Source of the DNA: a virus
Lineage: Duplodnaviria; Heunggongvirae; Uroviricota; Caudoviricetes
Strand: one strand, 5' to 3'
DNA length: 7,469 nt
IMG/VR virus record: IMGVR_UViG_2778261691_000002
Location: 1 to 7,469 of that record
This document shows, in pieces, positions 1 through 7,469 of this stretch (positions within the stretch are counted from its first letter, which is position 1; each line of letters starts with the position of its first letter). The notes beneath the pieces are model-generated. The model searched no databases, was not told the origin of the DNA, and saw only the letters and a list, made by a program, of their open reading frames with translations. A program made the position numbers and the translations under genes.

Positions 1-46
1 CTGTGTTCTGGTCATTTGTTGACACACGTACATAGCCAATAAGCAT
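1..46 (-). CDS. Serine DNA invertase (Gin/Cin/Pin/Hin family), N-terminal 15 codons only; gene continues beyond the left window edge
   Basis: Reverse complement of 1..46 reads atg ctt att ggc tat gta cgt gtg tca aca aat gac cag aac aca g = MLIGYVRVSTNDQNT, the N-terminus I recognise from Gin/Pin-type invertases, including the catalytic-serine motif YVRVST. SD-like GGGAG lies 7 nt upstream on the minus strand (revcomp of 54..58). Located 55 bp from a 26-bp crossover site. Gin, Cin and Pin cannot be told apart from 15 residues. Confidence 0.85.
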   Translation of the reverse strand, partial: MLIGYVRVSTNDQNT

Positions 47-72
47 GGTAGATCTCCCTGACAAAAGCAGGA

Positions 73-594
73 ATGATGCCATTTGCTCGTTATTTCTGCA
101 TTTTCATAAACGTTGGTTTGGGAGAAGGTTCTGCGTTGCCTGTTGGCGTACCAGTTCCTTGGCCTTCAGCTACGCCGCCGACAGGCTGGCTGAAATGCAA
201 CGGAGCAGCTTTTTCTGCTGAAGATTACCCTAATCTGGCAAAGGCTTACCCGACGTTAAAATTGCCTGATTTACGCGGTGAGTTTATTCGTGGCTGGGAT
301 GATGGAAAGGGAGTGGATAGTGGGCGAACTCTGCTTTCAGCACAAGGAGATGCTATCCGAAACATTACCGGGGTGGTTGGCTACAGTTCAATTGGCGATT
401 CACAAGGGTTATTAGGATACGTGTCAGGGGCCTTTTCGGCTTCGGAGTCAAAAGCTCCCGCATTAAGTGGTGCATCAGCATCCGGGTATCAACGCTCCCT
501 GTATGCGAATTTTAATGCTTCAGCCGTTGTCCCAACCGCAAATGAGAACCGCCCACGTAACATTGCCTTTAATTATATTGTGAGGGCTGCATAA
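73..594 (+). CDS. Alternative tail-fibre C-terminal cassette (Sv'-like, tail-collar domain), silent in this orientation; functional boundary is the crossover site at 113/114, not the ATG at 73
   Basis: Tail-collar-type motif PTGWLKCNGAAFSAEDYPNLAKAYPTLKLPDLRGEFIRGWDDG. The ORF begins only ~40 nt upstream of the crossover site and has no fibre N-terminal domain. Stop TAA at 592..594 overlaps the ATG of the downstream tfa (TAATG). Confidence 0.75.
   Translation: MMPFARYFCIFINVGLGEGSALPVGVPVPWPSATPPTGWLKCNGAAFSAEDYPNLAKAYPTLKLPDLRGEFIRGWDDGKGVDSGRTLLSAQGDAIRNITGVVGYSSIGDSQGLLGYVSGAFSASESKAPALSGASASGYQRSLYANFNASAVVPTANENRPRNIAFNYIVRAA
101..126. repeat. 26-bp invertase crossover site (gix/pix/hix-like), left copy
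   Basis: Plus strand ttttcataaacg|tt|ggtttgggagaa. The reverse complement of 1992..2017 is ctctcgaaaacc|tt|ggtttgggagaa: 21 of 26 positions identical, same central TT dinucleotide, imperfect dyad symmetry like hix (TTATCAAAAACC TT GGTTTTCAAGAA). Confidence 0.8.
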
Positions 595-1196
595 TGGATA
601 ACGCTGTATTAAATAGCGAGATTATTGCCACGAAGGCAGGGAATATTACCGTCTATAACTATGATGGTGAAACACGGGAATATATTTCCACTTCAAATGA
701 ATATCTTGCCGTTGGTGTTGGTATCCCGGCATATTCCTGTTTAGATTCACCAGGCACATATAAGGCTGGTTATGCTATCTGCCGTTCTGCAGATTTTAAC
801 TCATGGGAATATGTGCCAGACCATCGCGGTGAAATCGTCTATAACACCGAAACGGGAGAAGCCAAAGAAATCACAACTCCGGGTGATTACCCTGAAAATA
901 CAACCACTATCGCCCCGTTAACGCCATACGATAAATGGGATGGTGAGAAATGGGTGACCGATACTGAGGCACAGCACGGCGCAGCAGTAGATGCAGCAGA
1001 AGCACAGCGCCAGTCGCTGATTGATACTGCAATGGCCTCCATCAGTCTGATTCATCTGAAATTACAGGCCGGACGGAAGCTGACGCAGGCAGAAACCACC
1101 CGACTTAACGCTGTGCTGGATTACATTGACGCGGTGACGGCAACAGATACCAGCACCGCGCCGGATGTCATCTGGCCTGAACTGCCGGAGGCGTAG
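594..1196 (+). CDS. Tail fibre assembly chaperone (Tfa family), cognate to the silent fibre cassette
   Basis: 200 aa. C-terminal Tfa signature ...LNAVLDYIDAVTATDTSTAPDVIWPELP (compare lambda Tfa ...VDTSTAPDIEWP...). Start is translationally coupled to the upstream cassette. Length matches what I recall for e14 TfaE. Confidence 0.85.
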   Translation: MDNAVLNSEIIATKAGNITVYNYDGETREYISTSNEYLAVGVGIPAYSCLDSPGTYKAGYAICRSADFNSWEYVPDHRGEIVYNTETGEAKEITTPGDYPENTTTIAPLTPYDKWDGEKWVTDTEAQHGAAVDAAEAQRQSLIDTAMASISLIHLKLQAGRKLTQAETTRLNAVLDYIDAVTATDTSTAPDVIWPELPEA

Positions 1197-1611
1197 GCCA
1201 TTCAATATCTGGCGCCCCGGAAGTATCGACCAGTTCCAGTGCGTCCAGATAATCCAGCCACAAATTATATTGCGCCAGCTCGTCACCTTTCAGACGACCA
1301 ATAGCGGCTTTACCGGGCCATTGTTTACTGTTCATGTATTCGTTGGCCTGGTTAATTAGTAGCTGTCTTTCTGATTCAGTAATTTCAATAAGTTCTTCAT
1401 GCGTGGGTGGAGGAATATCTGCCCACGCAGGCAGCCCATCATCTCCGGCAATACGGATTTTTCCTTGTGGCGGTTCAGCCATAAACTCACTGATAATATT
1501 TTGATTTACTTCCTTAGCGTCTGATAAATCCCACCCCTCTGATTTATATTTATCAATCATATCCACAGGGAAAAAAGCATTATGCCTTGCGCTATAAACA
1601 TATTCGTTCAT
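1168..1611 (-). CDS. Tail fibre assembly chaperone (Tfa family), cognate to the currently expressed fibre
   Basis: C-terminal Tfa signature ...LWLDYLDALELVDTSGAPDIEWPTPP. I prefer the ATG at 1611..1609 (MNEYVYSA...), which has AGGGTGA 7-13 nt upstream, over the GTG at 1620 used by the ORF track. Sits directly downstream of the fibre gene. Confidence 0.8.
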   Translation of the reverse strand: MNEYVYSARHNAFFPVDMIDKYKSEGWDLSDAKEVNQNIISEFMAEPPQGKIRIAGDDGLPAWADIPPPTHEELIEITESERQLLINQANEYMNSKQWPGKAAIGRLKGDELAQYNLWLDYLDALELVDTSGAPDIEWPTPPAVQAR

Positions 1612-1631
1612 ATAAATCACCCTGAATAAAA

Positions 1632-2360
1632 TTACTCACCAACAGCCCACCAACTGTAATTCATCGATACCGTGTCGCTGGTTGATGACGTTCTGTAAGC
1701 AGAATTAAAACCGGTTAATGTTGGGCCTTCTGCGGTCATCACGAATCCCCGCCCAGCACCTAAAGGCGCACCACCATCACCAGAATGAGTAAGCATGGCG
1801 CAGTCCACTTTTTTAGGAAAAGGGATGCTGAATGTAATTCTCATTGTTTGCGTCGATAATGTCGGCGTAACCGCACCACGACCATATTGCAGGATTTTCC
1901 CGTTGGGTAATTTCATCCATCCATCACCACTGGCAAAAGAGGCCATGTCCGGTATCTGATTTTCCCCTGTTCCCACCCCCCGTTTCGCTGCTTCTCCCAA
2001 ACCAAGGTTTTCGAGAGCCGTTTTCACCGTGCCATCCGATTTGATATCACCAAACGGATTCTTGCGGCTCAGGTATTCAACAGCAAACCCCGATCCCAGC
2101 AATTCAACAAAACCGGGCAGATCACCATTATCAAGCACATCCCGTTGCGTTTTATCACTTACAAACTGGGCCAGAGCTGCAGCAATAAAGCTGGCCTGCC
2201 GAATAACCTTATTGACTTGCGCACTGGAGGCTTTCCCTGCTGTAAATCCGGATAAAAGCGCAGGCAACGCTTCCCATTCCTCCTGCGACATAACATTGGC
2301 ATTTTTACCCGTTGCGAATGCTTTAAAGTCATTTTTTGCCATCAGAGTAATACTCCCCAT
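1632..2360 (-). CDS. Tail fibre protein: constant N-terminal part (2360..2006) fused at the crossover site to a variable C-terminal receptor-binding part (1991..1632)
   Basis: Position at the end of the baseplate operon and followed by Tfa. The crossover site is in frame inside the ORF. An alternative start at ATG 2342..2340 (MAKNDF...) overlaps the upstream stop as TGATG and may be the true start. Short for a fibre (236-242 aa). Confidence 0.75.
1992..2017. repeat. 26-bp invertase crossover site, right copy, in inverted orientation relative to 101..126
   Basis: Plus strand ttctcccaaacc|aa|ggttttcgagag. Lies inside the minus-strand tail-fibre ORF, where it encodes ...ALENLGLGE... at the constant/variable junction. 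Confidence 0.8.
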
Positions 2361-3022
2361 GCCCCTACATCAAAACCACTGATAAATTCGTTATCCATAT
2401 CAAAACCAAAAAATTTTGAACCTTCCGATGGGGTTTCCACCGAAGGTGTTTCAATACCACCCGCCCACACCCCGGCGGCTTTTACTGTGAGATATCCCTG
2501 TTTAATTGCAGCAATTAACTCACGCGATACATCTGAAATATCAGTATCAGGAAAGACCCAGACCGATATCGTCATGTCCTGGTTATCGACAATCTGCATT
2601 CGCAGCCCGGATCCTGCTGTCGCCGTGTCAAGAATTGCTGGAAGCGAATCATTCCGTCCGTCCCAGTTATTAATCGCAATCTTCGCTTTAAGAATGACAC
2701 GATAAGTTTCATCGCTGAGATACATGTATCCTGAATCAGGATCGTATGGTCCCTGCCATACCCCCTGATCATATCCAAGCCCGTCGGTATCCCAGCTGAA
2801 ATAGACACCTGAGATAGGCTGGCTGACAACACGGCTACGTCCGATCCACAATCCAAGAATGTCAAGTTGCACACCAACCGCAGAGTCAATATCAAATGCA
2901 GTAATCAGCCCTCTGGTGGCAGCCGCAACATCAATAAGTGGCCGGGTCATCAGATCAACATGCGCAAGAAATTTAGGTTTGGTGGCGTGGTAGTTCGTGA
3001 TTAGTTCGGTGTATTTGCTCAT
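2342..3022 (-). CDS. Baseplate / tail-fibre-proximal protein (DUF2612-like; position equivalent to P2 gpI or Mu gp48)
   Basis: 226 aa. ATGA overlap with the upstream J-like gene at 3019..3022. Sits between the baseplate J-like gene and the tail fibre. Family assignment is by synteny and recollection, not a search. Confidence 0.6.
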
Positions 3023-4218
3023 GTCTCCACCGTTATAACGATATTTTCCGGGGTACAGGACGCAGATTCGTTGTATCTGATATCAATGTTTGATGACGAC
3101 AAAGCCCCCGGGGATTTCCCAATCGTCAGTTCCTGAATATCGTAATAGCGTGCATTCCCGCCACTCACCACGCCAAGATTCGCCGGTGAGTAAATGCGAC
3201 TTAAAAGGACCGAATCACCAATCATCAGACTATTGATATAGTCGGAAATAGCCTGCTGGATCTGCTGCCCTATCTGTGAGGTATAACCCGTAAAAACTTT
3301 TAATTTAATCCGGGCATAAACAGGTACATCACTGGAACGCGAAAATTTGATTACATGGGGATTGCCGTATTTATCCGGAACCGTAACGGATGTTGTACCG
3401 TGAGTGGCTGTTCCCTGGCCTTTATTCCCTCTGATAGCCTGAGCAATATCCGTCACATCACCGCCATCCACAATTACAGCAACAGAGTGTGGCGGTAACC
3501 CGTTACCGTCCTCCGAACCATTATCGTTTTCATAGAGTTTGTGGCGGGTTACACCGGTAACATTAGAAACAGCACCATTCAGTGCTTCAAATGGGGTTAT
3601 TGATGGTAACGCAACACTTTGCGACTGTCGGATACGTAACTCCGCATCAGTTTCTGCTGGAGTGCCTACAGTAGCTGCAGCAGGATTGGTTACCGAAACC
3701 CAGCCACGGGTTGGCGTATTAATTTCAGTGATAGTTCCAGCCAGCGCCGCCACTGCACCACTGACGGAACATGTTGCGGTCACCATCACTGTACCATCCA
3801 CGCCGACCACCACTGAAGCAGGCAAACGCCATATCACATTATTACTGTCTTTCACGCTGCCATTAATGATGGTTGTTCCGGCAGTTCCTGTAAGAAGCAA
3901 ATCAACCGTAGAATTCGTCGCGCCTTTACGTGAAATACCATTTATTTTCACGTTACTGGTCAGTGCAGCCCCATAGCCGGTTGCCGGTGAAAAACAGTTG
4001 TAGACAGTTATCGCCATATTATTGGCATCATGAATCGCCAGCGCCATCAGAGCCACCATCTGGCCGTCTTTGCTGTCCGGTTCGAGGTAGGCATCACTGC
4101 CATAAATCTGCTGAAAATAGCTAATCAGGGTGCTGAGTATCGTCTGATAATCAGGCGCACTGATCCCCTCCGCGGTTACCTTTGCAGATAAACCGAGAGA
4201 ATCAAGGTTCAGAGCCAT
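3019..4218 (-). CDS. Baseplate J-like protein (P2 gpJ / Mu gp47 / T4 gp6 family)
   Basis: 399 aa. TAATG stop/start overlap with the upstream W-like gene at 4216..4220. Position after the gp25/W-like gene. Gly/Thr/Val-rich beta-type composition typical of baseplate wedge proteins. Confidence 0.7.
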   Translation of the reverse strand: MALNLDSLGLSAKVTAEGISAPDYQTILSTLISYFQQIYGSDAYLEPDSKDGQMVALMALAIHDANNMAITVYNCFSPATGYGAALTSNVKINGISRKGATNSTVDLLLTGTAGTTIINGSVKDSNNVIWRLPASVVVGVDGTVMVTATCSVSGAVAALAGTITEINTPTRGWVSVTNPAAATVGTPAETDAELRIRQSQSVALPSITPFEALNGAVSNVTGVTRHKLYENDNGSEDGNGLPPHSVAVIVDGGDVTDIAQAIRGNKGQGTATHGTTSVTVPDKYGNPHVIKFSRSSDVPVYARIKLKVFTGYTSQIGQQIQQAISDYINSLMIGDSVLLSRIYSPANLGVVSGGNARYYDIQELTIGKSPGALSSSNIDIRYNESASCTPENIVITVET

Positions 4219-4571
4219 TACGCCTCCGATGTAACAGTCGTTATTCCATAAAGAGTGTCGATTTCAGCGGAAAACATGACACGTCGGGTCGTGGTATCCA
4301 CCGTCGTATTGAAAGAGAGGATTGATTTAACGCCCTGCGTTTCGAGGATGCGCTTACGGATCGCCAGGTTGTAGGTTTCCGGCTTCTGCTTACCGAGTAC
4401 GGACTGGATCCACGGAGTCCCCTCGGTGGTGTCGAGAAACCATTGCCCATACCACAATTCGAATCGCGTTTTTACCGCCTGCGCCACGGCCTCCGGTGAG
4501 TTAATCAGCCAGGTGTCATCACCGCTGCCAAAGGTGTAATCGCCATCGGCGTCTTCACGTCTGTATCGCAT
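4218..4571 (-). CDS. Baseplate protein, GPW/gp25-like (P2 gpW / Mu gp46 position)
   Basis: 117 aa, the typical size for this family. TGATG overlap with the upstream spike gene at 4569..4573. Synteny V-W-J. Confidence 0.6.
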   Translation of the reverse strand: MRYRREDADGDYTFGSGDDTWLINSPEAVAQAVKTRFELWYGQWFLDTTEGTPWIQSVLGKQKPETYNLAIRKRILETQGVKSILSFNTTVDTTTRRVMFSAEIDTLYGITTVTSEA

Positions 4572-5323
4572 CAGTTTACTCCGTCGGTATTGCTTCCACC
4601 GCGCTGAACACCACCATGAGTGTGCGTATCATCAATTGGCTTGCCGTTAGCCTTCACGCTACCCAAAAACTCAACAGCACCAGTGATTTTTGAAGCCACA
4701 CCAGAAACCACAGACCCCACCATGCCACCCATCCAGGTTAACAGGCCATGAATGGTTACTTTCTCAGAAAAATCAGCCAGAGGGGCAACCACATCAAGAC
4801 CACCCGGAGCGACAATTTTAATTTTCCTGGTATCAGGATTAAGCTCAAAATAGGTGCTGCCGTCATCACTACGCAACTGTGTGGCACTGGTATTAATACC
4901 GCTAATCTTCCTTGCCTGCGACTGGGGACCGACAATACAAAACGCATCCGATAAATCATGCATTCTGTCATCGACCGGCTCCTGTATCCCGCCGCTCTGC
5001 CACCAGAAATCAATACAACGATCGGCAAAAATCATCAAACATTCATCACCGGCTTTAACTGGGAACGTTAGCGTGCATCCTCCGCCGCGCGGGAATACCA
5101 CTGGCACATCCACCAGCAATGGGTAATTTTGGGTAATGCGGTTGCCGTCATTATCCTTTTCAACCGAACGGATAGCAGGCTGCACAACTGCCGTCACCGC
5201 ATCAGGATCGAATGACTGAATAATGCCAGGCAAGGCGACACGGATCTGGTTCTTTGTTGTTTCCCGTTCAGATTTGAATGTTTCGGCAAGGTCGCCGCTG
5301 CGGGTCTGGTCAGATACGGCCAT
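4571..5323 (-). CDS. Baseplate central spike / assembly protein V-like (P2 gpV / Mu gp45 position)
   Basis: 250 aa. ATG at 5323..5321 with GGAG about 10 nt upstream. C-terminal tip ...KPIDDTHTHGGVQRGG has an HxH motif like the metal-binding spike apex. First gene after the inserted cassette and terminator. Confidence 0.65.
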   Translation of the reverse strand: MAVSDQTRSGDLAETFKSERETTKNQIRVALPGIIQSFDPDAVTAVVQPAIRSVEKDNDGNRITQNYPLLVDVPVVFPRGGGCTLTFPVKAGDECLMIFADRCIDFWWQSGGIQEPVDDRMHDLSDAFCIVGPQSQARKISGINTSATQLRSDDGSTYFELNPDTRKIKIVAPGGLDVVAPLADFSEKVTIHGLLTWMGGMVGSVVSGVASKITGAVEFLGSVKANGKPIDDTHTHGGVQRGGSNTDGVN

Positions 5324-5342
5324 TTAGTAGGCTCCAGAAAGC

Positions 5343-5367
5343 AAAAAACCCGCCTGGTGGCGGGTTT
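5343..5367 (-). terminator. Rho-independent terminator for minus-strand transcription
   Basis: Minus-strand RNA: aaacccgcc-acca-ggcggguuuuuu. A GC-rich 6-9 bp stem (cccgcc/ggcggg at 5349..5354 and 5359..5364), 4-nt loop, then a U6 tract. Lies 18 nt downstream of the 57-aa ORF stop and ~20 nt upstream of the spike gene SD. Confidence 0.8.
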
Positions 5368-5384
5368 GATTTATAAGAACTTCA

Positions 5385-5558
5385 CTAACTATCTTTCTTG
5401 GGAAAAGTTGAAGGCTTGTCGTGATAGCTTTCCGTCATAATTTCGATATCCCCGAAAGGTACTCTAGCCATAATCTCTTGCTCATAGTTATCTAGGAAAG
5501 AGACCTCAGGCTCACTTGGTTTAGGTTGTGGTTCATTTTGGTCTTCTGGACAGGACAT
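5385..5558 (-). CDS. Hypothetical small acidic Pro/Glu-rich protein (57 aa), putative partner of the membrane protein
   Basis: Hand translation: MSCPEDQNEPQPKPSEPEVSFLDNYEQEIMARVPFGDIEIMTESYHDKPSTFPKKDS. The ATG at 5558 is 2 nt after the TGA of the upstream membrane gene (TGAatATG), with AAGG 7 nt upstream. Ends 18 nt before the terminator. Not in the ORF track (under 60 aa). No family recognised; could be non-coding. Confidence 0.4.
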   Translation of the reverse strand: MSCPEDQNEPQPKPSEPEVSFLDNYEQEIMARVPFGDIEIMTESYHDKPSTFPKKDS

Positions 5559-5560
5559 AT

Positions 5561-6091
5561 TCAAACCTTACTTATTAACATGCACGTTACAGAAATAATA
5601 AAAAATACAAATGACATAACCATCCATCGAAACAACTCATTTACAAACGCTGATTTTTCTTTATGGATTTTCTCGATTCTATCAATAGCCCTACCATACA
5701 TTATCAAATGAAATCTGACTGTGTCATCTCTACTACCCCTCAGAAGAAATTCATGTTGTTCAGGTGTTCGATGCACAGGCATTTTGGGAATATTTCTAAG
5801 TTCCCAACATTTCCATAAATAATAAAAACAAAAAACCAAACATACAAAACATGAACATAGACACAATAGAGACAATCTTGCGGATAGACTAGTCTTTAAC
5901 TGTTGTCCCAGCTCAAAGGACCCAAAAACGGCTAATAATGCAGAAATCTCAACACCAAGCACAGCAAGAAGAAAATTAGCTTTGTCCTCTAACCGCCTGT
6001 ATGTTGTCTTAACTTCTTCATACCTGTCTCTCGAGTACGACAAAATCGTATCTACTTCAAGGCCAACAGCCTCATTCCTTTGATTGCACAT
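5561..6091 (-). CDS. Hypothetical three-TM membrane protein (176 aa) encoded in an AT-rich insert; no family recognised
   Basis: ATG at 6091..6089. Charged N-terminal ~40 aa, then hydrophobic segments FLLAVLGVEISALLAVFGSF, LSLLCLCSCFVCLVFCFYYLW and WMVMSFVFFIISVTCMLI, with a charged ~60-aa loop between the second and third. An open frame of 176 codons in roughly 36% GC DNA is unlikely by chance. Begins 6 nt after the stop of the signal-peptide gene. Confidence 0.6.
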   Translation of the reverse strand: MCNQRNEAVGLEVDTILSYSRDRYEEVKTTYRRLEDKANFLLAVLGVEISALLAVFGSFELGQQLKTSLSARLSLLCLCSCFVCLVFCFYYLWKCWELRNIPKMPVHRTPEQHEFLLRGSRDDTVRFHLIMYGRAIDRIEKIHKEKSAFVNELFRWMVMSFVFFIISVTCMLISKV

Positions 6092-6097
6092 ATTGTA

Positions 6098-6451
6098 TTA
6101 ATCGTCAACCTTCTTACAAGGAAACGAACCTATGATTCTCGGCGCATCCATGCTGTTCTGCAGTAGTTGGACATTCAAGAAACGCGTTTCGGTACCCGGA
6201 CGGCGAATGAACTCGAAACCGTAATTGTTACCGTCTTTGGCTGGCATAAGCCCCATATCCGCCTTCATTCCATTACCGTTGCCGAGCGTTTTGATTTTCT
6301 GGGAGGTAACTGTCTCACCATTAATCCTGAACAATGAATCAGGAATCAACTCTAATTTGTAGCCACCACACTGAAGCGTGACACCGCCAGGATTCGCAGC
6401 AAATGCGAACCCCGGAAGGAAACAGAGTCCAATAACAATCCACTTTTTCAC
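6098..6451 (-). CDS. Hypothetical secreted/periplasmic protein with Sec signal peptide (117 aa)
   Basis: N-terminus MKKWIVIGLCFLPGFAFA|ANPGG is a classic signal peptide with an AFA-A signal peptidase I site and no lipobox. GTG start at 6451..6449 shares one base with the TAG of the upstream gene (taGTG), with GAGG upstream. Two Cys in the mature part (possible disulfide). Normal GC (~47%). Confidence 0.65.
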   Translation of the reverse strand: MKKWIVIGLCFLPGFAFAANPGGVTLQCGGYKLELIPDSLFRINGETVTSQKIKTLGNGNGMKADMGLMPAKDGNNYGFEFIRRPGTETRFLNVQLLQNSMDAPRIIGSFPCKKVDD

Positions 6452-7469
6452 TATCCTACCTCACGCTGTAAAGACGACGCCGAACGAAGATCCGCCGCAC
6501 CGCGCGCTTCGCACATCATATCCATGTACCACGCCTGGCCCCTTGTGTCGCCAGTGTACATAATCCCGCGCACAATATAAACGCCATCCGTTGCGATGCT
6601 GGCAGGCTGCGATATGGTGCCGCTTAGCGTAATATTTCCGTCCGTGTTCTGGTCGGTGATCTGCCCACCAGCCATAGCGATATCGTTGTTCGACAACGCG
6701 GTGCGATATACGGAAGCCTGATCCAGTTGAATGAGCCCATTAACCCGGATGTTCGGATTAATAAGCGCGCGGACGTTTACGCCGTTGCCGATGGTCTGCT
6801 GCGGCATGCCAATAAGCCCGGTAGCGCTGTTGAGCACAATCGCTTCGTGAACATATTCATTATTCACCACCATCTGGCGCTGACCATCCACGAATTGCCA
6901 TGTTGCGCCACATTGCCCGGCTACGTTATCCATTAGATGCCGCGTCATGCCAAAGAGCACCCGCCCCCGGGGGAATACAGTAGCAGGCATTTCAGGCGTC
7001 AGGCCTTCGGTCGCACCTTTGGCTTCGAAGTCTTTCATCAGCGCACGGTTCACATCAGCGACCGTGTAACCGGCAGCCAGCGTCTGTGAGGTTATACTGG
7101 TGGCAAAAGCCAGATCAGTATCTGCTGCCTGAATCAGGACGTAGGAATCAACCGGACTGTCTTTTCCTGTGACCGAGTAGCGAATTTCACCGCTGAAAAT
7201 CAGTCCGTAGTTGCGGCCATCTCTCTGGCCCACATCTGCCGCGTCGACTTCGCGCACGGTCCCGACGTCGCTTGCCGCCACCTCCGGCGCGATACCGTCG
7301 TAACCGGCAATCAGCCGCACTTTCGAAAATTCCTTCCCGGTGATTCGGTTCACAGTATCTGCCGAGAGGTTATAAATTTTGATAGTCCCTACCCGGGACG
7401 CGCTGCTGATGTTGAACCAGTCGATCGTAAAGGTGACTTTGAAATCACTTAGCTCAATTCCCTGACCGT
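6451..7469 (-). CDS. Phage tail/baseplate structural protein, 5'-truncated by the window edge (possibly baseplate hub, Mu gp44 / P2 gpD position)
   Basis: The frame stays open from the annotated GTG at 7353 up to position 7469 (hand-translated upstream codons ...GQGIELSDFKVTFTIDWFNISSASRVGTIKIYNLSADT-V-NRITGKEF...), so the real start is outside the window. Gly/Thr/Asn/Val-rich composition. The hub assignment is from synteny only. Confidence 0.5.
   Translation of the reverse strand, partial: GQGIELSDFKVTFTIDWFNISSASRVGTIKIYNLSADTVNRITGKEFSKVRLIAGYDGIAPEVAASDVGTVREVDAADVGQRDGRNYGLIFSGEIRYSVTGKDSPVDSYVLIQAADTDLAFATSITSQTLAAGYTVADVNRALMKDFEAKGATEGLTPEMPATVFPRGRVLFGMTRHLMDNVAGQCGATWQFVDGQRQMVVNNEYVHEAIVLNSATGLIGMPQQTIGNGVNVRALINPNIRVNGLIQLDQASVYRTALSNNDIAMAGGQITDQNTDGNITLSGTISQPASIATDGVYIVRGIMYTGDTRGQAWYMDMMCEARGAADLRSASSLQREVG

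Follow-up and report, generated by a model that had tools for sequence, protein, structure and literature searches.

The locus described here raises the question of whether a very short open reading frame (ORF), lying between the gene of a membrane protein and a transcription terminator, is itself a gene and, if it is, what its product does beside the membrane protein. The ORF is found in a stretch of 7,469 nucleotides (nt) of tailed-phage DNA (positions 1 to 7,469 of the IMG/VR record IMGVR_UViG_2778261691_000002; this whole stretch is called the window below). It would encode a protein of 57 amino acids (aa) and directly follows a gene for a 176-aa membrane protein. An earlier note on this DNA had proposed that the two genes are coupled and that the small product is a disordered regulator or antitoxin-like partner. 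Comparison with homologous loci indicates that the ORF is almost certainly a real protein-coding gene under purifying selection, and that the two proteins are very probably physical partners. For a role of the resulting two-gene cassette in defence against other phages, the chances appear about even.

The junction between the two genes suggests translational coupling. The TGA stop codon of the membrane gene (5563-5561) is separated by only 2 nt from the ATG of the small gene (TGAatATG), and a Shine-Dalgarno (SD) sequence, TAAGG, is situated 7 nt upstream of this ATG, where the earlier note had read AAGG. In an ORF listing the small ORF is lengthened to 59 aa by a TTG start at 5564. At the other end, a terminator stem of nine base pairs, six of them G-C, is followed by a T-run; the terminator predicted earlier is thus present, although it starts 17 nt and not 18 nt past the small-gene stop. 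The ORF by itself is weak evidence of a gene, because 2.7% of composition-preserving shuffles of its body remain open by chance. It is conservation that decides.

Protein and locus searches yielded homologous loci whose membrane proteins share 90%, about 50% or 43% identity with that of the window. These loci, which are given L numbers, belong to E. coli, Salmonella and Klebsiella or are viral or metagenomic contigs that are unassigned; for Citrobacter, only the protein sequence of a small-protein homologue was obtained. Each retrieved membrane gene is followed by an ORF of 53-63 aa, the membrane-protein partners being 43-100% identical. The gap between the two genes is 1, 2 or 3 nt (13 nt in Klebsiella), and eight of nine representative loci have TAAGG 6-8 nt upstream of the ATG. 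The exception is the locus from Klebsiella, with TAAGG about 19 nt upstream and a stretch of GGGG nearer to the ATG. The proposed coupling of the small ORF to the membrane gene is therefore upheld across lineages. Gaps of 1, 2, 3 and 13 nt shift the relative frame of the two genes from one lineage to another, and a programmed frameshift or readthrough fusion is thereby ruled out; termination followed by reinitiation fits the pattern.

The small-protein homologues are 25-95% identical to the window protein. Residues M1, Y25, V33, T42, E43 and S44 are invariant in their alignment, and the core reads Y-E-x-x-I-M-x-x-V-P-F-G-x-L-x-x-[M/A]-T-E-S. The ratio of nonsynonymous to synonymous substitutions per site (dN/dS, Nei-Gojobori), calculated from unsaturated pairs, is 0.15-0.21 for the small gene (0.18 for the window and L007, 0.21 for L012 and L026, 0.20 for L020 and L025, 0.15 for L012 and L022, 0.20 for L022 and L026) and 0.07-0.13 for the membrane gene in the same pairs. 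The substitutions in the small gene of three homologue pairs fall on codon positions 1, 2 and 3 in the numbers 10/8/25, 12/7/26 and 10/9/19, an excess at the third position, and in three homologue pairs the small-gene frame is the sole one among the six that is open in both members. The earlier note had reasoned that frame-breaking insertions or deletions in homologues would betray an untranslated region. All length differences among the homologues are in frame, and the frame is held in every retrieved locus. In the comparison of the window with L007, that is, of the E. coli with the Salmonella lineage, the small gene has 75% nucleotide identity, a dN of 0.20 and a dS of 1.1, and the membrane gene has a dN of 0.044 and a dS of 0.42. 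The higher dS of the small gene could be due to recombination inside the cassette or to sampling noise, as there are only about 40 synonymous sites.

The second part of the question, that of partnership, can be approached through distant relatives of the membrane protein with about 17-24% identity to it (33 representatives from an exhaustive profile search, given P numbers). Among the unfused relatives for which DNA is available, all six are followed by a coupled ORF of 34-45 aa at a gap of -4 to +6 nt. These are the partners in L034 (38 aa, gap 1, MSDDKDRLAEVPEEVEVPDVEVCLESFSKKDNSKDKKD), L036 (40-45 aa, gap 6, ...PPPQLQIVTESYDKPLPKGDGNRKK), L042 (44 aa, ATGA overlap), L043 (44 aa, gap 2, ...VPFVVDILESDQ...), L044 (35 aa, gap 2) and L045 (34 aa, ATGA overlap). 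Seven of the 33 representatives (P0042, P0044, P0049, P0050, P0056, P0062 and P0064) carry instead a tail of 38-81 aa directly past the third hydrophobic helix. A motif-type segment is present in five of these tails, those of P0042, P0044 (...SPNLQYVTEGLDS...), P0050 (...GPCLGVALESYRS...), P0056 and P0064 (...APALRMSLESLDS...), and no clear motif was found in the tails of P0049 and P0062. The DNA of P0050 and P0064 was checked and translates to the fused protein. L044 has both forms, a fused tail (3962-4597) and a second similar micro-ORF downstream (4600-4707), with NKPIPP...TPPI repeated.

The position, size and coupling of the partners are consistent throughout the distant relatives. When aligned, most of the free partners and the five tails show the same core, Pxφxφx[T/L]E[S/G]. 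When the window family is compared with the partners and tails by hhalign, the aligned stretch is exactly VPFGDIEIMTESY (P 0.0011). In a search of 1359 stop-to-stop segments from the distant loci with a hidden Markov model (HMM) of the window family, the partner in L036 comes second (E 0.055) and is followed by that in L034 (E 0.46). As a sequence signal, this is suggestive and no more. The occurrence of the same element as a separate protein in some relatives and as a fused tail in others is the classical argument that both products form one physical unit, and the physical partnership of the small protein and the membrane protein is very probable on these comparative grounds. The co-occurrence of the small gene with the membrane gene is obligate in every locus examined.

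The 57-aa product has a net charge of -8, an isoelectric point (pI) of 4.25 and a proline content of 14%, in agreement with its earlier description as acidic and rich in Pro and Glu. This character is not a hallmark of the family, however. The pI of the distant partners ranges from 4.05 to 10.2, so that acidity is specific to the window clade, and what is conserved among the small proteins is the brief motif Pxφxφx[T/L]E[S/G] rather than the N-terminus rich in Pro and Glu. Neither a signal peptide nor a hydrophobic segment is seen in the sequence. An AlphaFold2 (AF2) model calculated with 16 homologues has a single helix, residues 16-32, with a predicted local distance difference test score (pLDDT) of 83-92. 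Outside this helix no secondary structure is predicted and the confidence is mostly low, including the most conserved stretch, VPFG..TES. The model thus points to disorder outside residues 16-32, in line with the earlier suggestion, and a conserved stretch without predicted structure would behave as a peptide that folds on a partner. Searches of Pfam, PADLOC, NCBIfam and PDB sequences (the last for the small protein only) gave no match, and no DNA-binding or known antitoxin domain was found in it; Rfam returned just sub-threshold terminator-like noise. The features of the locus are collected in Table 1.

Table 1. Features of the window, with positions counted from its first nucleotide
Feature	Position	Strand	Basis or remark
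57-aa small protein gene	5385..5558	minus	ATG 5558-5556, TAG stop 5387-5385; sequence, homologue alignments, selection, AF2
Layout of the small protein	5385..5558	minus	acidic N-terminus, predicted helix at residues 16-32, conserved VPFGDIEIMTESY core, Lys-rich C-terminus
Small-protein codons 33-45 (VPFGDIEIMTESY), its most conserved part	5424..5462	minus	invariant columns, distant partners and tails, hhalign, HMM
Shine-Dalgarno sequence TAAGG	5566..5570	minus	inside the last codons of the membrane gene
176-aa membrane protein gene, partner of the small protein	5561..6091	minus	AF2, hydropathy, phrog_18554, weak PycTM matches
Intrinsic terminator between the small gene and the spike gene	5336..5367	minus	terminator scan; stem 5367-5346 and T-run
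Cargo insertion (membrane gene, small gene and short flanks)	5368..6097	minus	comparison with a prophage with an empty slot
117-aa signal-peptide protein gene	6098..6451	minus	STY1065/STY2022 family, phrog_3443; context, outside the cassette
ORFs around the inverted-repeat segment	73-594, 594-1196	plus	
ORFs around the inverted-repeat segment	1168-1620, 1632-2360	minus	

The membrane protein has hydrophobic helices at about residues 40-57, 72-95 and 153-173. Its AF2 model (pLDDT 89) contains helices 13-58, 69-96, 110-118 and 121-175, in which the N-terminal helix and residues 110-152 would form a cytoplasmic bundle. The protein belongs with phrog_18554 (E 5.3e-60, 165 of 184 positions), a family of unknown function, and has no significant match in Pfam or NCBIfam; no family member meaningfully matches Pfam. 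The exhaustive profile search, made against 1.84 billion representatives, returned only 39 proteins at E<=1e-3. The one family signal comes from three PycTM models of PADLOC, which match the 176-aa protein with E 2.6e-4, 6.1e-4 and 1.5e-3 over model positions 9-66 of 165. The alignment spans residues 24-94, that is, the N-terminal helix and the first two hydrophobic helices, and such matches are found in 12 of 42 aligned family members (best 2e-5). The Pfam PycTM family PF18967 appears solely as a precomputed weak match on four close homologues. The count of lysine and arginine residues across the family is 3-14 in the N-terminal tail, 0-3 in loop 1 and 6-14 in loop 2. This distribution together with the AF2 layout predicts that the N-terminus is inside and the C-terminus outside, in which case the fused tails would be periplasmic.

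The genomic setting gives further clues about the cassette. The window belongs to an E. coli prophage, being 100% identical to strain ECONIH2 and 99.6% to IAI1. Its tail module is SEN34/Brunovirus-like, with a Dit-like protein, plug, hub, spike, sheath initiator, baseplate J and wedge. The cassette is bounded on one side by the stop codon of the 117-aa secreted-protein gene, the GTG start of which overlaps the hub gene stop and the product of which has a cleavable signal peptide, and on the other side by the terminator preceding the spike gene. The G+C content of the cassette (5400-6100) is 34-41%, as opposed to 48-58% in the flanking tail genes. In E. coli DX6 the slot is empty and consists of the stop of the 117-aa gene, about 25 nt, the same terminator and the spike ATG. 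Elsewhere the slot holds other cargo: a 191-aa protein and a YafO-family toxin in E. coli AR_452, hypothetical proteins of 243 and 142 aa in E. coli Sx181-0-1 and of 77 and 138 aa in phage SEN34, and a reversed Zn-ribbon ORF with its own terminator in E. coli NRZ96606. The interval between hub and spike is a variable cargo slot in SEN34-like prophages, and the pair is a horizontally acquired cassette of low G+C content within it.

The cassette can be compared with a moron, which in the Juhala/Hendrix definition given in PMC3594210 is extra DNA of foreign composition between conserved phage genes, with a promoter and a terminator of its own for expression from the repressed prophage. Two of these three traits are seen here: the cassette is absent from related phages, as the empty slot of DX6 and the other cargo elsewhere demonstrate, and its composition is foreign. 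The terminator is kept in all nine related loci compared and is found in the cassette-free slot of DX6 as well, which makes it part of the phage backbone. A credible promoter was not found in the cassette. Two promoter-like candidates were considered, one ending at the start codon of the membrane gene and the other inside this gene. The internal one (5727-5700), which would drive the small gene alone, was rejected, since no lineage other than the 90%-identical Salmonella one has retained its -10 box.

By combining these observations, it is possible to propose what the cassette may do. The reading that we put forward, and to which we give an equal chance of being right or wrong, is that the two genes form a prophage exclusion or abortive-infection module in which the small protein is a detachable regulatory tail of a membrane effector. 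Ribosomes finishing the 176-aa protein would most likely reinitiate 2 nt downstream at TAAGG-N7-ATG, in which case both proteins would be synthesised side by side and in similar amounts. The small protein would be the free-standing form of the C-terminal tail that is fused past the third hydrophobic helix in distant relatives, and this fusion suggests that it works as a subunit bound to the membrane protein. The contact would probably be made via Pxφxφx[T/L]E[S/G] and, in the window clade, also via the amphipathic helix 16-32. The membrane protein might be a membrane-perturbing effector of the PycTM type working without a nucleotide cyclase, which the small protein would hold or gate in the manner of a tail that inhibits or senses. 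When another phage infects, the effector would then be released, or else the complex would block genome entry, and the lysogen would benefit as other phages are excluded or their infections aborted. That the small protein inhibits the membrane protein is the more tentative part of this proposal. Still more doubtful is a wider version, in which the pair founds a widespread and so far undescribed two-part membrane immunity module made of a cyclase-independent, PycTM-like effector with three helices and a short tail with the core Pxφxφx[T/L]E[S/G], either fused past the third helix or encoded by a coupled micro-ORF, where the tail keeps the effector closed until an invading phage displaces or cleaves it.

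Several observations weigh against the proposed module. The similarity to PycTM is low and covers only part of the model (66 of 165 positions), PF18967 has no match at E<=1 to the 176-aa protein or to the A2 members, and fold searches with the membrane protein find generic helical bundles only. The homology of the motif with that of the most distant partners is no more than suggestive, and the partner of P0058 is without the E-S core. The predicted topology is also in conflict with the proposal, for the C-terminus of the membrane protein is predicted to be outside the cytoplasm, and the free small proteins have no export signal; in the wider version of the proposal, the third helix might insert in the membrane only upon activation. 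No convincing promoter for expression in the lysogen was found, the sites from a consensus scan being no more frequent than in shuffled sequence, and with a terminator that belongs to the backbone the pair may be expressed only with the late tail operon. Finally, decayed copies are known in both directions. In L029, a prophage remnant (Salmonella GCA_006403435.1, 4001-4231), the 176-aa gene is intact and the small gene is cut after about codon 40, which is hard to square with a constitutively toxic effector that requires an inhibitor. In L008 (a viral contig, 4001-4504) it is the membrane gene that is frameshifted, giving 167 aa without the third hydrophobic helix, and the small gene is intact. 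The junction of the deletion in L029 lies inside the small gene, where the homology stops after ...VPFGDLEV and is followed by DNA next to cstA.

The known systems most similar to the pair help to define what it is not. A typical Pycsar system (pyrimidine cyclase anti-phage system) consists of a transmembrane (TM) protein and a cyclase, and the TM effectors disrupt the membrane (PMC13069673). Activation of the effector by cCMP or cUMP is a further mark of Pycsar. The window protein resembles PycTM (about 155-165 aa) in being a small helical membrane protein with a presumed membrane-perturbing action. Unlike Pycsar loci, the cassette and all the neighbourhoods examined are without a cyclase gene, and no nucleotide cyclase was found among the genes called near the cassette or in the related and distant loci; the PADLOC E-values, moreover, are only 1e-4 to 1e-5 over part of the model, and PF18967 is unmatched. 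As there is no cyclase and the family models match weakly and over part of their length, the pair is not counted as a member of Pycsar, nor do its sequence matches assign it to a catalogued family of toxin-antitoxin or defence systems. We know of no description of a PycTM protein with a small coupled partner or a motif-bearing tail.

In bacteriophage HK97, gp15 is encoded by a moron in the tail operon and is an inner-membrane exclusion protein (PMC3594210). The likeness to the window lies in cargo of foreign composition between conserved tail genes of a temperate coliphage, in a small inner-membrane protein and in a terminator at the end (PMC3594210). Gp15 has no sequence relationship to the pair, however, and it is the product of a single gene with its own promoter, whereas the window has two coupled genes, no clear promoter and a terminator of the backbone. 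On analogy the pair is most like a membrane-effector defence or exclusion cassette, in which PycTM minus its cyclase would be the model of the effector, HK97 gp15 the precedent for the position, split and fused regulation of the CapRel type that for the architecture, and T4 holin T with RIII that for a small cytoplasmic protein controlling a membrane protein.

Two further comparisons concern the division of labour within the pair. T4 holin T with the cytoplasmic antiholin RIII, and lambda RexA with RexB, are examples of a small soluble protein that controls a phage inner-membrane protein. The window pair likewise encodes a small soluble protein, here the proposed controller, together with an inner-membrane protein that may be able to compromise the membrane. 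It differs from both examples in having no sequence or fold similarity to them and in lying outside a lysis cassette or an immunity operon, and its small protein is much smaller than RexA. CapRel(SJ46), reportedly described by Zhang et al. in Nature in 2022, is said to be one chain with a C-terminal regulatory element that corresponds to bicistronic toxSAS-antitoxin pairs. Here too, one unit occurs either as a single chain or as two adjacent genes, is borne by prophages and has a regulatory element that diverges faster. The effector of the window is a membrane protein, however, and not a nucleotide pyrophosphokinase, and its regulatory element is a largely disordered peptide of 35-60 aa and not a folded domain, for which autoinhibition and phage sensing are proposed only.

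Other functions can be envisaged for the two proteins. The best surviving of these, although we consider it unlikely, is a superinfection-exclusion complex in which the inner-membrane protein blocks genome injection, as HK97 gp15 and P22 SieA do, and the small protein has a structural or stabilising part, with no death of the cell. Cargo of low G+C content in a tail operon recalls the gp15 moron (PMC3594210), and the secreted 117-aa protein encoded just upstream, together with the lipoprotein gene (111-620) that precedes the distant membrane-gene relative in L045, hints at a function directed at the envelope. An intact membrane gene that tolerates a truncated partner in L029 also suits a non-toxic protein. 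Against this reading, neither sequence nor fold searches relate the pair to gp15/YebO, SieA, Imm or Cor; the sole family signal is that of PycTM, a membrane-disrupting effector, and cargo of the toxin type occupies the same slot in other prophages.

That same cargo, the YafO toxin pair, could be taken to favour a classical toxin-antitoxin addiction module, in which the membrane protein would be a constitutive toxin and the small protein a labile antitoxin that stabilises the prophage without sensing phages. The arrangement of two short coupled genes agrees with type II systems, in which adjacent small genes are expressed together. The small product has charged tails and no structure beyond one helix, and its gene evolves faster than that of its partner (dN 0.20 vs 0.044 between the window and L007). 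Where the tail is part of the membrane-protein chain, however, it would have to be cleaved off before it could be degraded on its own, and the gene order is that of toxin first. No DNA-binding or known antitoxin domain and no toxin-antitoxin or system match was found in PADLOC, Pfam or NCBIfam, and the truncated small gene beside the intact 176-aa gene in L029 argues against an indispensable antitoxin. This reading appears distinctly improbable. Of the earlier proposal of a small regulator or antitoxin-like partner, the partnership is what has stood; no domain of a regulator or antitoxin was found, and 'antitoxin-like' is a plausible but hypothetical label.

It is less probable again, and by our estimate very improbable, that the pair serves the lytic cycle of its own phage as a holin/antiholin-like or envelope-remodelling pair, expressed late and tuning the timing of lysis or the release of particles, with the small protein modulating the membrane protein as T4 RIII modulates holin T. 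The orientation of the cassette inside the late operon and the lack of an independent promoter would suit such a function, as would the coupling of the upstream 117-aa gene to the hub gene, and a small soluble protein next to a small multi-helix membrane protein resembles holin-antiholin pairs such as T4 T/RI/RIII. The cassette is absent from close prophages with the same tail module, however, which makes it dispensable; no endolysin or lysis cassette is adjacent, the neighbours being the hub, plug, spike, sheath initiator and wedge genes; and distant relatives adjoin repressors or sit in non-phage islands.

The weakest reading, that the small ORF is the untranslated 3' region of the membrane gene before the terminator and open by chance, finds some comfort in the shuffles that remain open and in the missing RefSeq annotation, but it has a negligible probability and is effectively refuted by the comparative data, in which frame, length, start and SD sequence are kept down to 31-36% amino-acid identity with in-frame length changes only, dN/dS is about 0.2 with a third-position excess, and homologous tails are joined in frame to the membrane protein of relatives.

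Should the proposed module act against phages, it would provide a case of cyclase-independent control of a PycTM-like membrane effector, and the interval from baseplate hub to spike would be a new cargo hotspot in SEN34-like prophages of E. coli, Salmonella, Klebsiella and Citrobacter. The pair would be a concrete two-component module that is missing from current defence catalogues. What is new here is an uncharacterised family with a newly recognised micro-partner, split or fused. If the pair is not directed against phages, it is still a clean case for better annotation of small genes.

The annotation of the pair illustrates this last point. Proteins below 60 aa are routinely dropped from annotation, and here RefSeq has dropped the 176-aa partner too: in its PGAP annotation of IAI1 and ECONIH2 both genes are missing, leaving a gap of 774 bp in which one locus-tag number is skipped. 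The earlier statement that the ORF is unannotated is accordingly true of RefSeq. It does not extend to GenBank, where both genes of the cassette are listed as hypothetical proteins, the small one, for example, as ECIAI1_2628 in its 59-aa version, or to PHROGs, where the small protein matches phrog_18231 (E 2.1e-6, 43 of 56 positions), a family of unknown function. The UniRef and GenBank entries for the 176-aa gene call it a hypothetical or transmembrane protein. The pair was not found described in the literature on its locus tags and family names, on PycTM in prophages or on SEN34/Brunovirus.

The full cassette is present in 8 of 5426 complete E. coli genomes. A 1.2-kb query is matched somewhere in 215 E. 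coli genomes, and most of the matches listed cover the 117-aa gene only, which occurs in many more prophages than the cassette does. The exact 57-aa protein is found on at least 1000 contigs. A tblastn search with the membrane protein against 50,697 isolated phage genomes gave no match, and a scan of genome contigs gave no confirmed relative; the cassette is known from prophages and metagenomes only.

The neighbourhoods of related loci are diverse. The distant fused relative in L040 is convergent with a CI-type repressor (helix-turn-helix and Peptidase_S24), L036 is near RelA_SpoT and Panacea genes, L034 lies in a UvrD-helicase/DUF4760/DUF5677 neighbourhood, and L042 is beside a gene that, judged on the start of its sequence alone, seems to be a Zot-like one from a filamentous phage. 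L025 was considered as an independent integrase-proximal context and rejected, for it is a decayed prophage with a hub-gene fragment and the secreted-protein gene upstream. The terminator stem of L040 (1030-1070) is the same as that of the window at 5346-5367 (aaacccgccacccggcgggttttt); either such terminators are simply widespread among enterobacterial phages or they move together with cargo of this kind.

At the other end of the window, an inverted repeat of 20 nt with 95% complementarity (AAACGTTGGTTTGGGAGAAG at 108-127 and CTTCTCCCAAACCAAGGTTT at 1991-2010) brackets 1.86 kb, in which ORFs resembling a tail-fibre C-terminal part and tail-fibre assembly proteins are oppositely oriented. No invertase gene was found within the window, and to judge from its layout the segment looks like an invertible host-range segment of the Gin/Cin/Pin type.

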